Origin: Planctomycetota bacterium
Lineage (GTDB): Bacteria > Planctomycetota > GCA-002687715 > CAIWVZ01
DNA length: 64,000 nucleotides
Direction of reading: 5' to 3'
NCBI GenBank assembly: GCA_044222185.1
Contig: JBGANV010000003.1
Coordinates: forward strand, 160,001-224,000
Below, piece by piece: positions 1,250 to 58,432 of this stretch. Made by a program: the position numbers and the translations under genes. Each line of letters begins with the position of its first letter. The first letter of the stretch is position 1. The notes beneath the pieces were generated by a model. The model searched no databases. It was not told the DNA's origin and saw only the letters and a list, made by a program, of their open reading frames with translations.

Positions 1250-1798
1250 ATGACCGATTACCGACTTGCGACGAAACGCGTCTATGAGGGCCGGGTCCTG
1301 AAGGTCGACCTCGACCTTGTGAGCCTCCCGAACGGCAAGCAGACGAATCTGGAGATGATCCGACACCCGGGAGCCTCGGCGGTCGTGCCCCTCTTCCCCG
1401 ATGGCCGCGTGCGACTCATCCGCCAGTTCCGCTACGCCGCCGAGGCGTTCATCCTGGAGGTCCCGGCGGGCAAGCTCGACCCGGGGGAAACTCCCGCACG
1501 GTGCGCCGCACGCGAGGTCGAGGAGGAAGCCGGAGTGCGCGCCGGTCGATTACACTCGCTCGGCTTCATCTTCACGACGCCGGGGTTCACGGACGAGCGG
1601 ATCCACCTCTTCGCGGCAACGGGGCTCACTCCCGTCGAACGTCACCTCGACGACGACGAGGTGATCGACACGGTCGACATGACGCTTTCGGAAGCCTTGC
1701 GACTGGCGCGCACCGGCGGGATCCAGGACTCGAAGTCGTTGTGCGCGCTGTGGCGGACGGAGCAGGAGCTGGCCGCGGGAGCGATCACCCTCGCATGA
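1250..1798 (+). CDS. NUDIX hydrolase, ADP-ribose pyrophosphatase-like
   Basis: Nudix box GKLDPGETPARCAAREVEEEAG, plus HPGAS, QFRY, PGFTDE and IQDSKS motifs. Confidence 0.9.
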   Translation: MTDYRLATKRVYEGRVLKVDLDLVSLPNGKQTNLEMIRHPGASAVVPLFPDGRVRLIRQFRYAAEAFILEVPAGKLDPGETPARCAAREVEEEAGVRAGRLHSLGFIFTTPGFTDERIHLFAATGLTPVERHLDDDEVIDTVDMTLSEALRLARTGGIQDSKSLCALWRTEQELAAGAITLA

Positions 1799-51651: not shown

Positions 51652-51653
51652 AG

Positions 51654-51727
51654 CGAGGGTGACGGGACTCGAACCCGCAACCACCAGATCGACAGTCTGG
51701 TGCGCTAACCAATTGCGCTACACCCCC
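51654..51727 (-). tRNA. tRNA-Asp(GTC), CCA not encoded
   Basis: GGGGGTG/CACCCTC acceptor stem, D-arm GCGC..TGG..GCGC, anticodon arm CCAGA-CTGTCGA-TCTGG, T-arm GCGGG-TTCGAGT-CCCGT, discriminator G. Confidence 0.97.
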
Positions 51728-51917
51728 GGGGCGCACGCCTTCGACGACGGGGTCCGCCGCCAAAAGAGGGCCGCATCATAGCGGCGGCCATCAGCCGGAC
51801 AAGGGCACCGGGATCGGGCGGAATGCACGGTTGGAATCCACGGGTGTGACGTTCAGGAACGAACCGGCCTCCCGGATCCGGAGGGTTTCGCGCAGTCGCG
51901 CGGCCTCCGGAGATGCC

Positions 51918-54900
51918 ATGAGGATCACGTCCATTCTGCTCGTGTCGCTGGCCGCCGCGGCTTCGATGACGGCTCAGACCGGTTCCGTCATCCCCGACAG
52001 CCAGATCCCCCGCGATCAGGTCCAGCGCGACTGGGTGAATTTCGAAACGCACCCCATCCAGCCGATCGCGTTGTCGAACGACCAGAGCCTGTTGATGTGC
52101 ATCAACCAACCGGCAGGACGGTTGGTGATCTTCAACGCGGCCGATCGGTCGGTGTCGGGTGTCGTGAGGACCGGCCCGGGCGTGGTGAGCGTCGTGCCGC
52201 GACCAGGGACGAACGAGGTGTTCCTCGTGGACGCCGTCGCCGGCGCGGTGTCGGTGCTGGACCTCGGGCTGCGATCGATCGTCAAGACGATTCGCGTCGG
52301 AGCGCAGCCACACGGACTCGTGTTCACGCCCAGCGGTGACCGCGCGTACGTGGCATGCTCAGCCATCGACAGGGTCGACGTGATCGATCTGCGCACGGGA
52401 TCGGGAACCGCGTACGGCGTCGTGAATCAAATCGCCATCCCGGCCAAGAACCCTCGCGCCATCGCCTACCTCGGCGGGAAAGTCTGGGTCGCGTCGCTGC
52501 TCTCGGGCAACAACACGTCGGTCGTGTCCCCGGGAGCCAACCCGGGCGCCACCTCGGTGAAGAAGGTCACGGCGCAGAACGGCGGGTCGGGGTTCCAAAG
52601 CCCGCTGCCCGACCGTGACATCCTCGCGATCACGCCACATCCCACGAATCCGGCGCTGGACGTCCTCGACCCGACCGCGACGGTGACGGCAGTGGGCACG
52701 AGCCTGTTCAATCTGCACGACGCCGCGGGTGCGCTCTGGGTGCCAAACACCGACGCGCTGAACGCAGACGTGATCGGCGAGAAGAACTTCGTCGGCGGGC
52801 AGGTGGTGAGGAACCAGCTCACGAAGGTGACGATTCCGGGCGGCGCGACGACGGTCTATTCGCTCGACCTGCCGCCAGCGGGCAGTGCCCCCTGCGCCCA
52901 GCCGACGGGGATGGCATACGACCCGGTGAACGGAAGCCTGTTCGTTTGCGGATATGGCAGCGACACCGTCGCCGTCCTGAATGCGTCGACGGGGACGTGG
53001 CGTGGACAGGTCGCACTCCCCGCGGCCCCCGGGTTCCGCACGGGGCCACGGTGCGCGCTCTACGACTCGACCCGGAAACTGGTCTACGTCCTGAACAAGG
53101 CCGCCGACACGCTCAGCGTCATCGACGCCGCAGCGACGCCGACGCTGCTCACGACGGTGAGCCTGGGATTGGATCCGACTCCGGCTCCGATCAAGCGCGG
53201 GCGTGGCCACCTCATCAACGCCAATCACTCCCTCTCCGGCACCGGCTCCTGCGCGTCCTGCCATGTGGACGGACACCTGGACGGTCTCGGCTGGGACTTG
53301 TCCGCGTTCCTCGACCCGGTCGGCACGCAGACGCCGATGTACGAACAGGACCGGAAGGGGCCGATGGTCACCCAGAGCCTGCGCGGCCTTCGCGAGACGC
53401 TCCCCTACCACTGGCGTGGCGAGCGCGCGACGCTCGAGTCGTTCAACCCGGCCTTCGTCGGACTTCTCAAGCGCCCGCAGGAATTGACGTCAGCCGAGTT
53501 CGCGGACTTCCGCGCGTACATCGAGAGTCTGACGTACTCTCCCAACCCGCGCCAGTCGTCCGATCGGACGTACACGACGACTCAGAGGATGGGAGCCGCC
53601 ATCTACATGTCGACGCCGGTCGTCAGCAATCTGGCCTGCAACGGCTGTCACGCGCTGCCGCTCGGCACGCAGGGAGAACCGCTGTTCGACGTGCCCGGGA
53701 ACGAGCTCTCGCGGTCCTTCGTCGTGCCGCACCTGCGGGGGGTGGTCGACAAGCTGTCACCGGCGTTCTTCGTGGGAGGCAACTTCCAATACCGGCCGGA
53801 AACGGGCTTCGGCCTCCTTCACAGCGGCTTCTTCGCAACGCTGGAAGTGCTGACGCCTTTGCAGGCGAACGGCGACTTCATGAGCCTCTTCATTCCGCTC
53901 TCGCAGACCGAGCGGACCCTCGTCGGAGGCTTCGTCTCCGCGCTCGACACGGGGCTCGCCCCCGCAACGGCTTTCCAGGCGACGGTCAACCAGCAGAACG
54001 CGGGCTCGTTCTCGACGGACCTCACCTATCTCACGAGCCAGGCCGATCTCGGCAACTGCGACATCGCCGCGTTCGCCAACTTCCGCATCTCTCCAACCCA
54101 GAGCGTCAAGCGTGGGTACGCCTACGATCGGACCTCGCACCAGTTCTGGTCGACGACGATAAGCGAGGGACTGAATCAGCCGGCGCTGCTCGTCGGGCTC
54201 GCGAGCCTCGGCATGGGTGAAGTGACCTTCGTCGGCTTGCCCGTGGGCATGGGGTGGCGTTTCGGCGTCGACGAGGACATGGATTGGTTGCAGGACGACG
54301 ACGAGGCGGCCCGCGGATGCAACGGCGACGTCTCGGACAAGGACCTGGACGGGTTCCCCGACGGTTGGGAAGTCGCCCGCGGGATGAACCCGACGCAGTT
54401 CGACTCCTCGGCGAACGACACGCAAGCCCCCGTGATCTTCGGAGCGCAGCTCGTCTACCAGACGACGAACGTGGCGAAGTACCGCGTCGACACGAGCGAG
54501 CCGACGCGCCTCCTCGTCACGACGACCGTGAACAACGTGACGACGAGCACGGTGGTGAGTCCTGCGGATCCGGGCCCCGACTTCCAGATGTCCCACATGG
54601 TCGTCGTGCAAGGGCTGTCCGCAGGTCAGGCGGCGACGATCTCGATCCAGGCCACCGACCCCGCGGGAAACTCGTCCGCTTCGTCCGTGAGCCTGGTCGC
54701 ACAGTCGCAGAACTTCCCATCCCTCCACGTCGGATCGTTGACGGTCCAGGTGACCACCGACCCGGCGAGCCAGACGGCGACGGCGACGATCCAGGTGGGC
54801 GTGGCGTCCGAGACGGGCGCCTTGCTCGCCAACATGAACGTCGAGGCCCGGATCTACCTCGAAGTCGGCGGAGTGCTGACCGAGCCGTTCGCGACGCCGT

Positions 54901-55082
54901 CGAACCACATGGTGACGGCGGCCAACGGGATCGCGACGTTCACGGGGACCTTCACGCTGCCGCCCCCGAACAATCGGAAGCTCCACGTCGCCGTGTGGGA
55001 CGTCTCCGAGCCCGTGTTCCCACCGGTTCGAGCCTACGTCGAAGCCCGCGACGTCCTGAACTACGCGAACGCGGGATTCTGA
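51918..55082 (+). CDS. Secreted YVTN/YncE beta-propeller plus di-heme cytochrome c (CcP/MauG-like) protein
   Basis: Signal peptide, propeller repeats (VGAQPHGLVFTPSG), CASCH and CNGCH heme motifs, KGPMVTQSLRG, PYHWRG, DLDGFPDGWE, and an Ig/FN3-like tail. Confidence 0.85.
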   Translation: MRITSILLVSLAAAASMTAQTGSVIPDSQIPRDQVQRDWVNFETHPIQPIALSNDQSLLMCINQPAGRLVIFNAADRSVSGVVRTGPGVVSVVPRPGTNEVFLVDAVAGAVSVLDLGLRSIVKTIRVGAQPHGLVFTPSGDRAYVACSAIDRVDVIDLRTGSGTAYGVVNQIAIPAKNPRAIAYLGGKVWVASLLSGNNTSVVSPGANPGATSVKKVTAQNGGSGFQSPLPDRDILAITPHPTNPALDVLDPTATVTAVGTSLFNLHDAAGALWVPNTDALNADVIGEKNFVGGQVVRNQLTKVTIPGGATTVYSLDLPPAGSAPCAQPTGMAYDPVNGSLFVCGYGSDTVAVLNASTGTWRGQVALPAAPGFRTGPRCALYDSTRKLVYVLNKAADTLSVIDAAATPTLLTTVSLGLDPTPAPIKRGRGHLINANHSLSGTGSCASCHVDGHLDGLGWDLSAFLDPVGTQTPMYEQDRKGPMVTQSLRGLRETLPYHWRGERATLESFNPAFVGLLKRPQELTSAEFADFRAYIESLTYSPNPRQSSDRTYTTTQRMGAAIYMSTPVVSNLACNGCHALPLGTQGEPLFDVPGNELSRSFVVPHLRGVVDKLSPAFFVGGNFQYRPETGFGLLHSGFFATLEVLTPLQANGDFMSLFIPLSQTERTLVGGFVSALDTGLAPATAFQATVNQQNAGSFSTDLTYLTSQADLGNCDIAAFANFRISPTQSVKRGYAYDRTSHQFWSTTISEGLNQPALLVGLASLGMGEVTFVGLPVGMGWRFGVDEDMDWLQDDDEAARGCNGDVSDKDLDGFPDGWEVARGMNPTQFDSSANDTQAPVIFGAQLVYQTTNVAKYRVDTSEPTRLLVTTTVNNVTTSTVVSPADPGPDFQMSHMVVVQGLSAGQAATISIQATDPAGNSSASSVSLVAQSQNFPSLHVGSLTVQVTTDPASQTATATIQVGVASETGALLANMNVEARIYLEVGGVLTEPFATPSNHMVTAANGIATFTGTFTLPPPNNRKLHVAVWDVSEPVFPPVRAYVEARDVLNYANAGF

Positions 55083-55151
55083 TCTCGAGGGCGGCATTCG
55101 CAGGGCGGCGCGCGCTCCCGCCGCCCCGCGGCCCCGCGGTAGACTCCGGCC

Positions 55152-56339
55152 ATGCCCCGCGCCGTTCAACGCACGCCGAGCCTTGCCTCCATCCTCGCAA
55201 CGACCGCCGCCCTGATCTTCGCCTGGCTCTGCACGAGCTGTCAGTCGCCGTCGACGCCGCCACCGACTCCGACGCCGCCGAGCACGATCATCGTGGGAAC
55301 CCAGCAGCCGGAGTCGGCCGGTGGGATTCTCACGCTCGCGCTCGAAGGTGCGGAACGCGGCGCGCAGCGCTCGGCGCTCGCGGGCGTGGCGAAGCCGACG
55401 TTCGTGCACCGCGTGGCGTCGCGCAACATGCTCGTCGTGGCGAGCGAGGTCGGCGACGTGAAGCAAGGCCGTGACGGTGCCATCGTGACCGTCGCGTGCG
55501 CTTCCGACGGGACGCCCGCGCGCGTCCTCGGGCGGGCGCCCTCGGGCGGCGCCGGTCCGTGCTCGCTCGACGTGACGGAGGACGGCCGGTGGGTCGTCGT
55601 CGCGAACTACGGTGGTGGAAGCGTGGCCGTGCTCCCGATCGACGACGCCGCTGCGCCGAGGGCGCCGACCGCGATCGTCCGACACGACGGCCGCGGTGCC
55701 GTCGCAGGTCGTCAGGACGCGCCGCACGTGCACGACGCGCGCTTCGCCTCGAACGGGCGCTTCGTCGTCGTCGCGGACCTCGGGATCGACCGTGTCCTCG
55801 TCTACCGCTTCGATCGCGATCACGGCACGCTCACGCCGCATTCATCGCCGGGAATCGACCTGCCGCCCGGCTCCGGCCCCCGCAAGATCGCCTTCCACCC
55901 TTCGGGCAAGTGGATCTTCGTCGCCTGCGAGCTGTCGAACACCGTCGCCACGTGCGCATGGGATGAGGCCGCGGGCGCACTCACCCTCGCCGCGAGCGTC
56001 TCGACACTGCCGGAAGGCTTCGAAGACAGGAGCTTCGCCGGGGACGTCCTCGTCTCCGAGGATGGCCGGCGGCTCTACGTCAGCAATCGCGGAAACGATT
56101 CCATCGCCACGTTCTCGGTCGACGCCGGAACCGGCGGGCTGAGTTTGCTGGCGCACACCGCGAGCGGGGGGAAGTTTCCGTGGAGCCTCGCTCTCGACGG
56201 CGCGCGCCGGCTGCTCTTCGCCGCGAACCAGGGTTCGAACGAAGTCGTCGCATGCGAGCTGGACCCGACGACGGGCGTGCCTGGCGCGGCACGACGATTC
56301 GCCGAGGCGACCCGCCCCACGTCGCTCGCGCTCGAGTAG
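55152..56339 (+). CDS. pgl: Lactonase family (6-phosphogluconolactonase/cycloisomerase 2), possibly a lipoprotein
   Basis: ANYGGG, RQDAPHVH, DLGID, GSGPR..FHP, ELSN, YVSNRG.DS and ANQ.S motifs. Confidence 0.85.
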   Translation: MPRAVQRTPSLASILATTAALIFAWLCTSCQSPSTPPPTPTPPSTIIVGTQQPESAGGILTLALEGAERGAQRSALAGVAKPTFVHRVASRNMLVVASEVGDVKQGRDGAIVTVACASDGTPARVLGRAPSGGAGPCSLDVTEDGRWVVVANYGGGSVAVLPIDDAAAPRAPTAIVRHDGRGAVAGRQDAPHVHDARFASNGRFVVVADLGIDRVLVYRFDRDHGTLTPHSSPGIDLPPGSGPRKIAFHPSGKWIFVACELSNTVATCAWDEAAGALTLAASVSTLPEGFEDRSFAGDVLVSEDGRRLYVSNRGNDSIATFSVDAGTGGLSLLAHTASGGKFPWSLALDGARRLLFAANQGSNEVVACELDPTTGVPGAARRFAEATRPTSLALE

Positions 56340-56415
56340 CGGCGATGGCGTGGATCGCACCGGCGCCAGCGACCGACCGTCGGCGACGACTCGTACACGA
56401 CCAGGACCCCAGGGC

Positions 56416-56455
56416 AAAAAAAAGGTCCCGCCGCACCCGAAAGTGCGGCGGGACC
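56416..56455 (-). terminator. Rho-independent terminator oriented on the minus strand
   Basis: 13-bp stem GGTCCCGCCGCAC/GTGCGGCGGGACC with an A8 run on its left (U8 on the minus strand). Confidence 0.9.
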
Positions 56456-56632
56456 ACGCAGCCTCGCCTCGCACACGGCTGGTCGCTTCCGCGACCAGCC
56501 TCCCTCCAACGTTTCTTTCCCCAGGAGTCCTTCCTCACGAAGCTCCTGAGCACGCCTGACGTTGTCCGTTCGTTCGCGGCCTTTTGGGCCGCAGGAGTGA
56601 TCTCCGCGAGACCTCGTCGATCACTCCCGTGA
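56416..56632 (-). ncRNA. Candidate structured small RNA (CsrB/Rsm-like, GGA-rich)
   Basis: Promoter-like element, four hairpins and a terminator, about ten GGA motifs, and no credible ORF. The 5' end is estimated. Confidence 0.55.
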
Positions 56633-56637
56633 GCTTG

Positions 56638-56664
56638 TTCTCGGAACGCATCGAACTGACTTGA
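56638..56664 (-). promoter_or_regulatory. Putative sigma28-type promoter for the candidate sRNA
   Basis: TCAA-N15-TCCGAGAA on the minus strand. Confidence 0.45.
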
Positions 56665-56857
56665 GGGACGGCGCCGAACCCGGACGAGTCGCCGTTGGAA
56701 CGCCGGATCCGGGTTGGAATACTGGCGGCCGACCCGCAAGGTTGGGCCTGTCGCTGCCCGGCACCGTGCCGACGCACCGGACGAAACCAGCACGGATCGA
56801 AGCCTTTTCCCGGCCCCAGGCGTCCCGTGTGGACGCCCCGGAGCCGGCGCGACTCCC

Positions 56858-58432
56858 ATGGCACAGAACATCAAGACCCGCGCGGCCGATTACGCGCAGT
56901 GGTACCTGGACGTCATCAATGCCGCCGGCCTGGCCGACTACTCACCCGTCCGCGGGTGCATGGTCATCAAGCCGCACGGCTACGCCATGTGGGAACAGCT
57001 CCAGAAGGAGTTGGATCATCGCTTCAAGGCGACGGGCCACGTCAACGCCTACTTCCCCGTCTTCATCCCCATGAGCTTCCTCGCCAAGGAAGCCAAGCAC
57101 GTGGAAGGGTTCGCCATGGAGTGCGCCGTCGTGACGCACGCCGGATTGGAGCCCGACGGCGAGGGCGGACTCCGCCCCAAGGGCAAGCTGGAAGAGCCGC
57201 TCATCGTCCGCCCGACGAGCGAGACGATCATCGGACACATGTACGCCCAATGGGTCCAGTCGTGGCGCGACCTGCCGATCCTCATCAACCAATGGGCGAA
57301 CATCGTTCGCTGGGAGATGCGCACGCGCCTCTTCCTGCGGACCATGGAATTCCTCTGGCAGGAAGGACACACCGCGCACGAGACGTGGGAAGAAGCGGAG
57401 GCGGAGACGCGCCGCATGCTCGACGTCTACTCGGACGTCGCGCAGAACGTGCTGGCGATCCCCGTGATCCGCGGCCGGAAGACACCCAGCGAACGCTTCG
57501 CCGGCGCCGACGACACCTACTGCATCGAAGCGATGATGCAGGACGGCAAGGCGCTCCAGGCGGGAACCAGCCACAACCTGGGACAGAACTTCGCGAAGGC
57601 GTTCGACATCAAGTTCCAGACGCGTGACCAGCAGGTGGCGCACGTCTACACCACCTCCTGGGGTGTCACGACCCGGCTCATCGGGGCCGTGATCATGACG
57701 CACTCGGATGACGAAGGCCTGGTCTGCCCGCCCGCCATGGCGCCGGTGCTGCTGGCCATCGTCCCGATCTACCGCAAGCCGGAAGAGCGGGACGCAGTCA
57801 TCGCCTACGCCCGCCGGCTCCTCGCGCAGATCGCCGGAGAGGAAGCCGTCGCGCGCGCAGAGGCCGAGCGCGGCAACCAGGAGATCCTGAACGTGAACCT
57901 GGGCGGCGCCCGCGTGGGACAACGCGTGGTGCTCGATCTGCGCGACGGCCTCCGTCCTCCGGACAAGTTCTTCTGGTGGGAGCAGCGCGGCGTGCCGATC
58001 CGCTTCGAGGCCGGTCCGAAGGACCTCGCACAGGAGAGCGTGATGACCGTGCTCCGTCACACGCGCGAGAAGGCGCCCATCAAGGCCGTCGACATCTCGC
58101 ACACCTGGTTCGAGGCCACGCTCGCTCGGATCCAACAGGCCCTCTTCGATCGCGCCGTCGCGTACCGGAAGGACCACACGTGGATCTGCGACAGCTACGC
58201 CGAGTTCAAGGACAAGATCGAATCGCAGCCGGGTTTCTACCTGATGCACTGGGACGGCACCGCCGAGACGGAAGCCCGCATCAAGGAGGAGACGAAGGCC
58301 ACGATCCGCTGCATTCCCCTCGCCGACACGTTGGACACGGCGGGCGGTGAAGTGAACCTCAGGACGCCCGGAACCGACCCCATGTCGGGCAAACCATCGA
58401 ACGGGCGCGTGATCTTCGCTCGCGCCTACTGA
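56858..58432 (+). CDS. proS: Proline--tRNA ligase, archaeal/eukaryote-like type
   Basis: VRGCMVIKP.GY, RPTSET, NQWANIVRWE, FLRT.EFLWQEGHT, QAGTSHNLGQNF, SWG.TTR and terminal FARAY. Confidence 0.97.
   Translation: MAQNIKTRAADYAQWYLDVINAAGLADYSPVRGCMVIKPHGYAMWEQLQKELDHRFKATGHVNAYFPVFIPMSFLAKEAKHVEGFAMECAVVTHAGLEPDGEGGLRPKGKLEEPLIVRPTSETIIGHMYAQWVQSWRDLPILINQWANIVRWEMRTRLFLRTMEFLWQEGHTAHETWEEAEAETRRMLDVYSDVAQNVLAIPVIRGRKTPSERFAGADDTYCIEAMMQDGKALQAGTSHNLGQNFAKAFDIKFQTRDQQVAHVYTTSWGVTTRLIGAVIMTHSDDEGLVCPPAMAPVLLAIVPIYRKPEERDAVIAYARRLLAQIAGEEAVARAEAERGNQEILNVNLGGARVGQRVVLDLRDGLRPPDKFFWWEQRGVPIRFEAGPKDLAQESVMTVLRHTREKAPIKAVDISHTWFEATLARIQQALFDRAVAYRKDHTWICDSYAEFKDKIESQPGFYLMHWDGTAETEARIKEETKATIRCIPLADTLDTAGGEVNLRTPGTDPMSGKPSNGRVIFARAY

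Follow-up and report, generated by a model that had tools for sequence, protein, structure and literature searches.

Does the gap between a lactonase gene and proS in a planctomycete genome house a regulatory RNA gene, and if so, what might the RNA do? The locus lies in a 64-kb stretch of DNA (hereafter the window; G+C 68%) from a genome (G000; assembly 7.08 Mb) that is 93.8% complete, a value that bounds every negative search of this genome reported below. The source is a planctomycete: the closest named relative of its prolyl-tRNA synthetase (ProRS) comes from a Planctomycetota metagenome-assembled genome (71% identity). Within the 518-nt gap, the minus strand carries at 56665-56416 a promoter-like motif, four hairpins, 11 GGA triplets, and the sole strong intrinsic terminator of the window (Table 1). 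An initial annotation had read this element as an unannotated RNA with its own promoter and terminator and as a candidate motility-linked sponge for CsrA. We conclude that the element is very probably a non-coding RNA (ncRNA) gene transcribed by sigma-28 RNA polymerase. As an overall explanation we favour, with moderate confidence, a trans-acting late-flagellar regulatory RNA of the lineage, about 215 nt long and encoded by a stand-alone gene. The motility-linked small RNA (sRNA) of the annotation was thus upheld, whereas the CsrA sponge was not. Comparisons covered 23 genomes of the order and 151 sampled genomes of the phylum; among the relatives named below, G001 and G004 represent another genus of the same family, G002 a third genus of that family, and G007 another family.

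The motif CTCAAG-N14-TCCGAGAA occurs in the source genome at the element and nowhere else. Upstream of flagellin gene 2 lies CTCAAG-N14-TCCGACAA, and upstream of flagellin gene 1 a looser TCAAG...GCTCGATA. In the form TCAAG-N14-TCCGANAA, the motif was found three times in this genome (at the element, at flagellin 2, and at a third site directed toward the 3' end of flagellin 1) and 39 times in 20 of the 23 order genomes, compared with 2 matches for the reversed control pattern. The downstream content was read for 33 of the 39 sites: 6 precede flagellin genes (MGLRINTN...), 6 precede small FlgM-like genes, about 8 precede terminator-ended stretches lacking an open reading frame (ORF), and the remaining 13 are followed by other or unclear sequence. 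Downstream of 32 distinct sigma-28 sites, no conserved motif recurred at a set position. The sigma-28 consensus of enterobacteria is TAAA-N15-GCCGATAA, and in its exact form the E. coli string does not occur in the source genome. Because the motif resembles this consensus, and because of the genes that it precedes, it would be read by FliA. Two FliA/WhiG-type sigma factors, encoded at C1:1905541-1906203 and C7:394594-395259, score above the NCBIfam TIGR02479 cut-off in this genome, which answers the annotation's question about fliA, and three matches to the flagellin N-terminal domain were found. The sequence comparisons strongly support the motif as the flagellin promoter type of this lineage, and both the sigma28-like promoter and the link to motility proposed earlier are borne out by them. 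The pattern TCAAG-N14-TCCGANAA can serve the order as a sigma-28 promoter consensus.

At its other end the element has a canonical hairpin and U-tract terminator. Only two runs of five or more T exist on either strand of the window, and the hairpin upstream of the run in the element reaches -31.7 kcal/mol, against -15.3 kcal/mol at the other, in agreement with the earlier claim that the strongest terminator of the window points along the minus strand. Genome-wide (7.08 Mb), it ranks fifth in strength among 45 terminator-like sites and is the only one of them with a sigma-28-type motif within 400 nt upstream. All four hairpins proposed in the initial annotation were recovered on the minus strand, and every coordinate that it gave is correct. 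The fold of the region beats that of shuffled sequences on both strands (z score -6.5 for minus and -7.7 for plus); the strand call therefore rests on the promoter and on the U tail, as the U8 tract is confined to the minus strand. In a DNA search (E<=0.001) only the query locus itself was matched in the source genome, and since the element is single-copy, it does not belong to a REP/BIME-like family of hairpin repeats.

Counterparts were found at the syntenic position in relatives. In G001 and G004, the strand opposite proS carries, upstream of proS, CTCAAG-N14-TCCGAGAA followed by a terminator-ended stretch of about 165 nt, in which a CAGGG...CCCTG stem, GAGGA(A/G)G, AAAACGGAGGGAG, a hairpin, a linker, and the terminator succeed one another. 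A tRNA-Asp(GTC) gene lies about 185 nt beyond the RNA on the same strand, whereas about 4.7 kb separates the two in the window. The promoter blocks are identical among the window, G001, and G004, while the 14-nt spacer between them is unalignable. A covariance model (R1) was built from G001 and G004, two sequences that are 97% identical. Its top match in the window locus is 56413-56554 (20.6 bits, E 3.7e-6 in 601 nt), and its top match in the G002 locus, where the unit is again divergent from proS, is L029:726-844 (15.4 bits, E 2.6e-4 in 1.8 kb). Both matches place the GGAGGGAG motif, stems PA and PB, and the terminator stem PT in register. Stem PA reads CAGGG/CCCUG in G001/G004, a two-sided change of AG/CT to GA/TC, with GAGGAAG kept in G001. 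At the place of PB stands a hairpin of wholly different sequence, CGACGCG/CGCGTCG with the loop GCCTTTG in G001/G004 and GGGGCC/GGCCCC in G002. The best-kept motif of the RNA body lies just 5' of PB and reads ACGGAGGGAG in G001/G004 and GCGGAGCGAG in G002; AACGGACAACG is common to the window and G002. Hairpin 1 is absent from the G001/G004 versions.

A possible distant counterpart in another family, as judged from its layout and sequence, is found in G007 (L129:1501-1770, plus strand), where an exact sigma-28 motif precedes a GGA-rich multi-hairpin stretch of about 245 nt with a terminator. tRNA-Asp follows 145 nt after this RNA, and the divergent neighbour is a Na/Ca exchanger gene, not proS. 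The 10-mer GTCAGGCGTG is common to the window and G007 at nearly the same offset from the -10 element (77 versus 78). The terminators of the G001, G004, G002, and G007 equivalents end in T4-T6. The comparison comprises three or four effective lineages. A DNA search with the element in 40 relatives gave no match outside its own genome. Searches with ProRS yielded 80 loci each in genome and metagenome contigs (best 71% and 70% identity); a loosened motif run over all of these loci, together with reading of the four closest upstream regions, revealed no further counterpart upstream of proS, the few loosened-motif matches lying inside or beyond coding sequence.

These comparisons bear on the alternative that survives best, namely that the unit serves no function of its own: a sigma-28 promoter, orphan or spurious, would fire into intergenic hairpins, the terminator would mainly insulate the convergent lactonase gene, and the transcript would be noise. 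We regard this as unlikely. Although the RNA body turns over fast and the two strands fold comparably well, the minus strand alone carries the U8 tract, the promoter blocks are kept across genera when the spacer is not, the unit stays at the syntenic site in three genera despite the 4.7-kb change of one flank, and it is a single-copy sequence, not a repeat.

Sequencing runs hint at an abundant RNA that stays within the predicted gene. Of five indexed runs, each with a small share, the contigs of four were compared with positions 56200-57100 (901 nt). Two metatranscriptome runs of one study (X2 and X3) each gave a single near-identical contig, at 56461-56622 and 56460-56602, respectively, and had no other coverage of the 901 nt, except that X2 also contained a diverged 39-nt stretch of proS. 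These contigs differ from the window at one position (G>A at 56587, plus strand), where hairpin 2 has U-G in place of C-G and so remains paired. Runs X1 (probably DNA) and X5 (library kind unrecorded) cover other parts and are uninformative on transcription.

Under the explanation that we favour, FliA (sigma-28) RNA polymerase would start a few bases downstream of TCCGAGAA and stop at the hairpin-U8 terminator. Judged by its promoter, the RNA would be made together with flagellin, late in flagellum assembly, and would then act in trans as a regulator within the late flagellar regulon. The unpaired Shine-Dalgarno-like segment CGGAG(G/C)GAG between PA and PB would pair with a pyrimidine-rich RNA partner. 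Its core in the window, GGAGGGAG, lies in a region predicted to be unpaired (P 0.64-0.85). As CGGAG(G/C)GAG is kept in three genera and no usable start codon accompanies it, a trans-acting pairing segment is the favoured reading of it. Given a sigma-28-transcribed ncRNA gene, we put this pairing mechanism forward tentatively, with appreciably less confidence than the gene itself.

A number of results weigh against this explanation. When duplexes were predicted between the RNA and four flagellar 5' regions (those of two flagellin genes and of the flgL-like and flgM-like genes), none stood out from shuffled sequences (10, 22, 5, and 21 of 25 shuffles were as good or better), and Hfq was not found in the source genome by Pfam. 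The G002 unit has a partial promoter match only (TTCAGG-N13-GCCGACAA, by eye). Local alignment of the RNA bodies was also no better than for shuffles: of 300 shuffles, 88, 16, and 103 reached the observed score for the window against G007, G002, and G001, respectively. The case for homology is accordingly one of position, promoter, architecture, and short motifs in common, and not of an alignment with statistical backing. Genome-wide, R1 performs weakly: over the 23 genomes every match other than its two source sequences was a false positive, and its best match in the source genome (27 bits) is a false positive in a coding region, with the true copy unlisted. The covariation comes from about three independent lineages in an alignment that was fitted to the structure. 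As for the RNA contigs, they come from one study, are unstranded, and may reflect DNA carry-over; an X5 contig also ends at 56460, which makes an assembly break the probable cause of this end, and 56622-56714 is spanned by another X5 contig.

Further searches gave little more on partners or structure. Genome-wide, the complement CTCCCTCC occurs 176 times, and the 12-mer CTCCCTCCAACG occurs once elsewhere, at C11:27923 inside a long reverse-strand ORF, which is at chance level. A search for clustered pyrimidine tracts as a CU-rich partner returned 713 clusters and is non-specific. Four of the R1 matches were read and lie in or beside coding sequence without the sigma-28-type promoter. On other sigma-28-driven non-coding loci, R1 matched little beyond terminators. 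MAFFT alignments of the homologues were structurally not sensible.

We then consider the GGA triplets, which had led to the CsrA-sponge proposal. RNAs of the CsrB/RsmY/RsmZ type sequester CsrA through repeated GGA motifs. The annotation had spoken of about ten such motifs, some of them in stems; 11 are present on the minus strand, of which about 6 are predicted to be unpaired, whereas the plus strand has 4. Averaged over the window, 249 nt contain about 5 (standard deviation 2.2), and 1.3% of minus-strand windows reach 11; the enrichment is genuine yet moderate. CsrA (Pfam PF02599, six-frame search) was found neither in the source genome nor in any of the 23 order genomes. It was found in 57 of the 151 sampled phylum genomes, and the controls E. 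coli, B. subtilis, and T. maritima were positive. The G001/G004 versions hold 5 GGA triplets (about 3.3 expected), 1 of them clearly unpaired, and the G002 version holds 6, of which 3 are unpaired. With the partner protein missing and the motif pattern poorly conserved, the element is not a member of the Csr/Rsm family, barring a csrA gene in the roughly 6% of the genome that is unassembled. A CsrA sponge was rejected on three counts: CsrA is not found in the order, the number and loop placement of the GGA motifs are poorly kept in relatives, and Rfam gave no CsrB/Rsm match.

A sponge for another protein, titrating a non-CsrA RNA-binding regulator through repeated GGA or GGAGG, is a slightly weaker contender than a functionless transcript. 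The GGA count and its unpaired share in the window speak for it, as do the purine- and GGA-rich RNAs behind sigma-28-type motifs in G002 and G007. With the CsrA/FliW and FlbT checkpoints not found (Pfam detected neither FliW nor FlbT in the source genome), another regulator is conceivable. Against this stand the lack of CsrA throughout the order genomes and of any candidate protein, the poor conservation of GGA multiplicity in G001/G004, the loss of the GGAA loop of PB, which is GCCUUUG in G001/G004, and the failure to find a conserved GGA-type site at any set position among 32 distinct sigma-28 transcripts. On a par with it in likelihood is a sigma-28-timed decoy RNA, whose exposed GGAGG/GGA would soak up a translational repressor, either a non-CsrA protein or pyrimidine-rich anti-Shine-Dalgarno sRNAs like the CUCUCUCUC-bearing transcripts described below. 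If true, the decoy would be analogous to the Csr/Rsm sponge system but would have evolved independently and be timed by sigma-28.

It is improbable that the element acts in cis on proS, whether by divergent transcription or as an antisense RNA to a long proS 5' untranslated region (UTR), coupling proS to the flagellar programme. In each of the three genera of the family with an assembled region, the unit and proS are divergent, but the genes are 105-340 nt apart and nothing shows that the transcripts overlap. In addition, the possible G007 counterpart is divergent from the Na/Ca exchanger gene, with tRNA-Asp kept, and no Rfam leader was matched on either strand of 56300-56900.

The coding capacity of the transcript was also inspected. 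Apart from a 38-aa frame, the frames in it are short or read through the terminator, and neither the 38-aa ORF nor 5 longer ORFs overlapping the element matched Pfam. The ATG-ORF of the G001 version is lost in G004. At the gathering threshold, Rfam yielded only a tRNA in the window and nothing on the element. A permissive scan of 56300-56900 gave 6 sub-threshold matches, none of them Csr/Rsm; the best, asX1 (26.7 bits versus a threshold of 70), sits mostly on the terminator. By its sequence, a transcript without a plausible ORF is non-coding, and the description of the element as an unannotated minus-strand ncRNA outside known Rfam families holds. That it is instead a small-protein mRNA, read for example from a GTG-started 29-aa frame at 56623 (with GGGAG just before the GTG) or from the 38-aa frame, is very improbable, as the ATG of the latter, at 56651, falls within the promoter spacer, GGGAG abuts the GTG without spacing, G001/G004 lack the 5' domain with the frame, Pfam gave no family, and no start codon stands at a usable distance from GGAGGGAG in three lineages.

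A sigma-28-transcribed regulatory RNA would have parallels elsewhere. In E. coli, the sigma-28-dependent small RNAs called UhpU, MotR, FliX, and FlgO tune flagellum synthesis and are reported to be UTR-derived and Hfq-associated (PMC10578931). The window RNA shares with them the logic of a sigma-28 promoter, here deduced from the motif. Unlike them, it is encoded by a free-standing gene that has a promoter and a terminator of its own, and Pfam found no Hfq in its genome; Rfam detected no relation in sequence or structure. In Campylobacter jejuni, two flagellar sRNAs have been described, FliA-dependent CJnc170 (FlmR) and RpoN-dependent CJnc230 (FlmE); CJnc170 is reported to be transcribed with the late FliA genes and to tune filament assembly (PMC11187230). 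CJnc170 and the window RNA have a FliA-type promoter on an sRNA in common, and CJnc170 shows that such RNAs exist outside enterobacteria; the two belong to different phyla and have no detectable homology, and a flgM-like target was not supported by the duplex search. Compared with CsrB/CsrC/RsmX/Y/Z, the window RNA is likewise multi-hairpin, with an intrinsic terminator and several GGA that are predicted to be exposed. The promoters of CsrB/Rsm RNAs are GacA/UvrY-dependent, whereas a sigma-28-type promoter is present here, CsrA was found in no order genome, the GGA pattern is poorly conserved, and there is no Rfam match.

The window RNA thus probably belongs to a known functional kind, the sigma-28-dependent flagellar sRNAs, and what would be new is its free-standing gene, its unrelated sequence, and its planctomycete host. 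To our knowledge, regulatory RNAs are almost unknown in Planctomycetota. Judged by titles and the openings of abstracts, no paper on a planctomycete sRNA or a planctomycete flagellar sigma-28 regulon was found. The locus offers a testable case, with a promoter that assigns it to a regulon, a rare canonical terminator, and syntenic counterparts. If the explanation is true, RNA-level tuning of late flagellar genes, as in E. coli and Campylobacter, arose independently here. The coordinates of the element and of other features are collected in Table 1.

Table 1. Positions of the parts of the element, of neighbouring genes, and of the MDVF... protein genes; positions without a contig or locus name refer to the window.
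Feature	Position	Strand	Remarks
-35-like element CTCAAG	56660-56665	-	sigma-28 (FliA)-type; identical in window, G001, and G004
-10-like element TCCGAGAA	56638-56645	-	14-nt spacer from CTCAAG
Predicted transcription start zone	56628-56634	-	placed by the usual distance downstream of a -10 element
Hairpin 1, GGAGTGATC/GATCACTCC	56627-56594	-	wider form GGGAGTGATC...GATCACTCC at 56628-56593; in minimum free energy and centroid structures
Hairpin 2, GCGGCC-CAAAA-GGCCGC	56592-56576	-	from structure prediction
Linker with AACGGACAACG and GTCAGGCGTG	56575-56552	-	unpaired
Hairpin 3 (stem PA), CAGGAG/CTCCTG	56548-56522	-	GAGGAAGGA on 3' side
Purine-rich run ACGTTGGAGGGAG	56512-56500	-	unpaired; core GGAGGGAG (56507-56500), Shine-Dalgarno-like
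Hairpin 4 (stem PB), GGCTGGTCGC-GGAA-GCGACCAGCC	56500-56477	-	
Intrinsic terminator	56455-56424; T8 56423-56416	-	14-bp stem (11 G-C pairs), 4-nt loop TTTC
tRNA-Asp(GTC)	51653-51727	-	same strand as the RNA, 4.7 kb downstream; synteny marker outside the RNA gene
7-bladed lactonase gene	55152-56339	+	Pfam E 9.5e-88
Class II ProRS gene (proS)	56858-58432	+	
MDVF... protein gene	G000 C10:35541-35831	+	
MDVF... protein gene	L124:1591-1878		
MDVF... protein gene	L127:1151-1438	-	
MDVF... protein gene	L139:1114-1425	-	
MDVF... protein gene	L153:1117-1428	-	

Several other loci with the same promoter type were noted. A conserved protein of 96-104 aa (MDVF...) is encoded directly behind sigma-28-type promoters in several genomes. 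Pfam FlgM has no match in the source genome and reached E 0.047, below threshold, with 1 of 3 MDVF... proteins tested; from its placement, the protein is probably the anti-sigma-28 factor FlgM of the order. A conserved small membrane-like protein (M..LL..QQNIYDKF...) is encoded behind sigma-28 motifs at L132 (G010) and L133 (G012) and recurs as a member of the putative sigma-28 regulon in one family of the order. The third exact motif of the source genome (C1:1973967-1973993, plus strand, equal to L128:1501-1527) is found about 135 nt past the flagellin 1 stop codon and is directed back into that gene, making it a candidate start of a FliA-driven antisense RNA to the 3' end of the flagellin mRNA.

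Terminator-ended RNAs of about 130 nt with 2-3 CUCUCUCUC tracts follow the same promoter type in two other families of the order (L152 of G014, ~1501-1660, and L143 of G011, ~1501-1640, minus strand). The flagellin mRNAs at L130 and L131 of the order have GGAGAGAGA ribosome-binding sites, and the CUCUCUCUC-bearing RNAs look like anti-Shine-Dalgarno sRNAs aimed at flagellin. Together, these tracts and sites make an RNA-RNA interplay around Shine-Dalgarno-like sequences plausible, if unproven. At L148 (G012) and L149 (G020), too, the sigma-28 motif is followed by a terminator-ended stretch, about 200-300 nt long, in which no ORF is obvious. The late flagellar regulon of the order seems to include several lineage-specific small RNAs, indicating that several unrelated small non-coding transcripts hang on its sigma-28 promoter type. 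Canonical hairpin and U-tract terminators are very rare here and may serve as beacons for sRNA and tRNA genes in the lineage.

Around the element itself, the 4.7-kb insert (51653-56416) holds the lactonase gene and a plus-strand ORF of 1083 aa without a clear Pfam family; a protein search of genome contigs with the lactonase found no relatives. By eye, a CCTTTTCCC tract was noted on the plus strand at ~56803-56811, some 50-60 nt upstream of the start codon of proS, with a similar tract in G001 and G004 (L011 and L012, ~54-62 nt upstream of proS) and a similar CCTTTTGC in two genomes of another family. The CCTTTTCCC-like tract may belong to the promoter or leader of proS.

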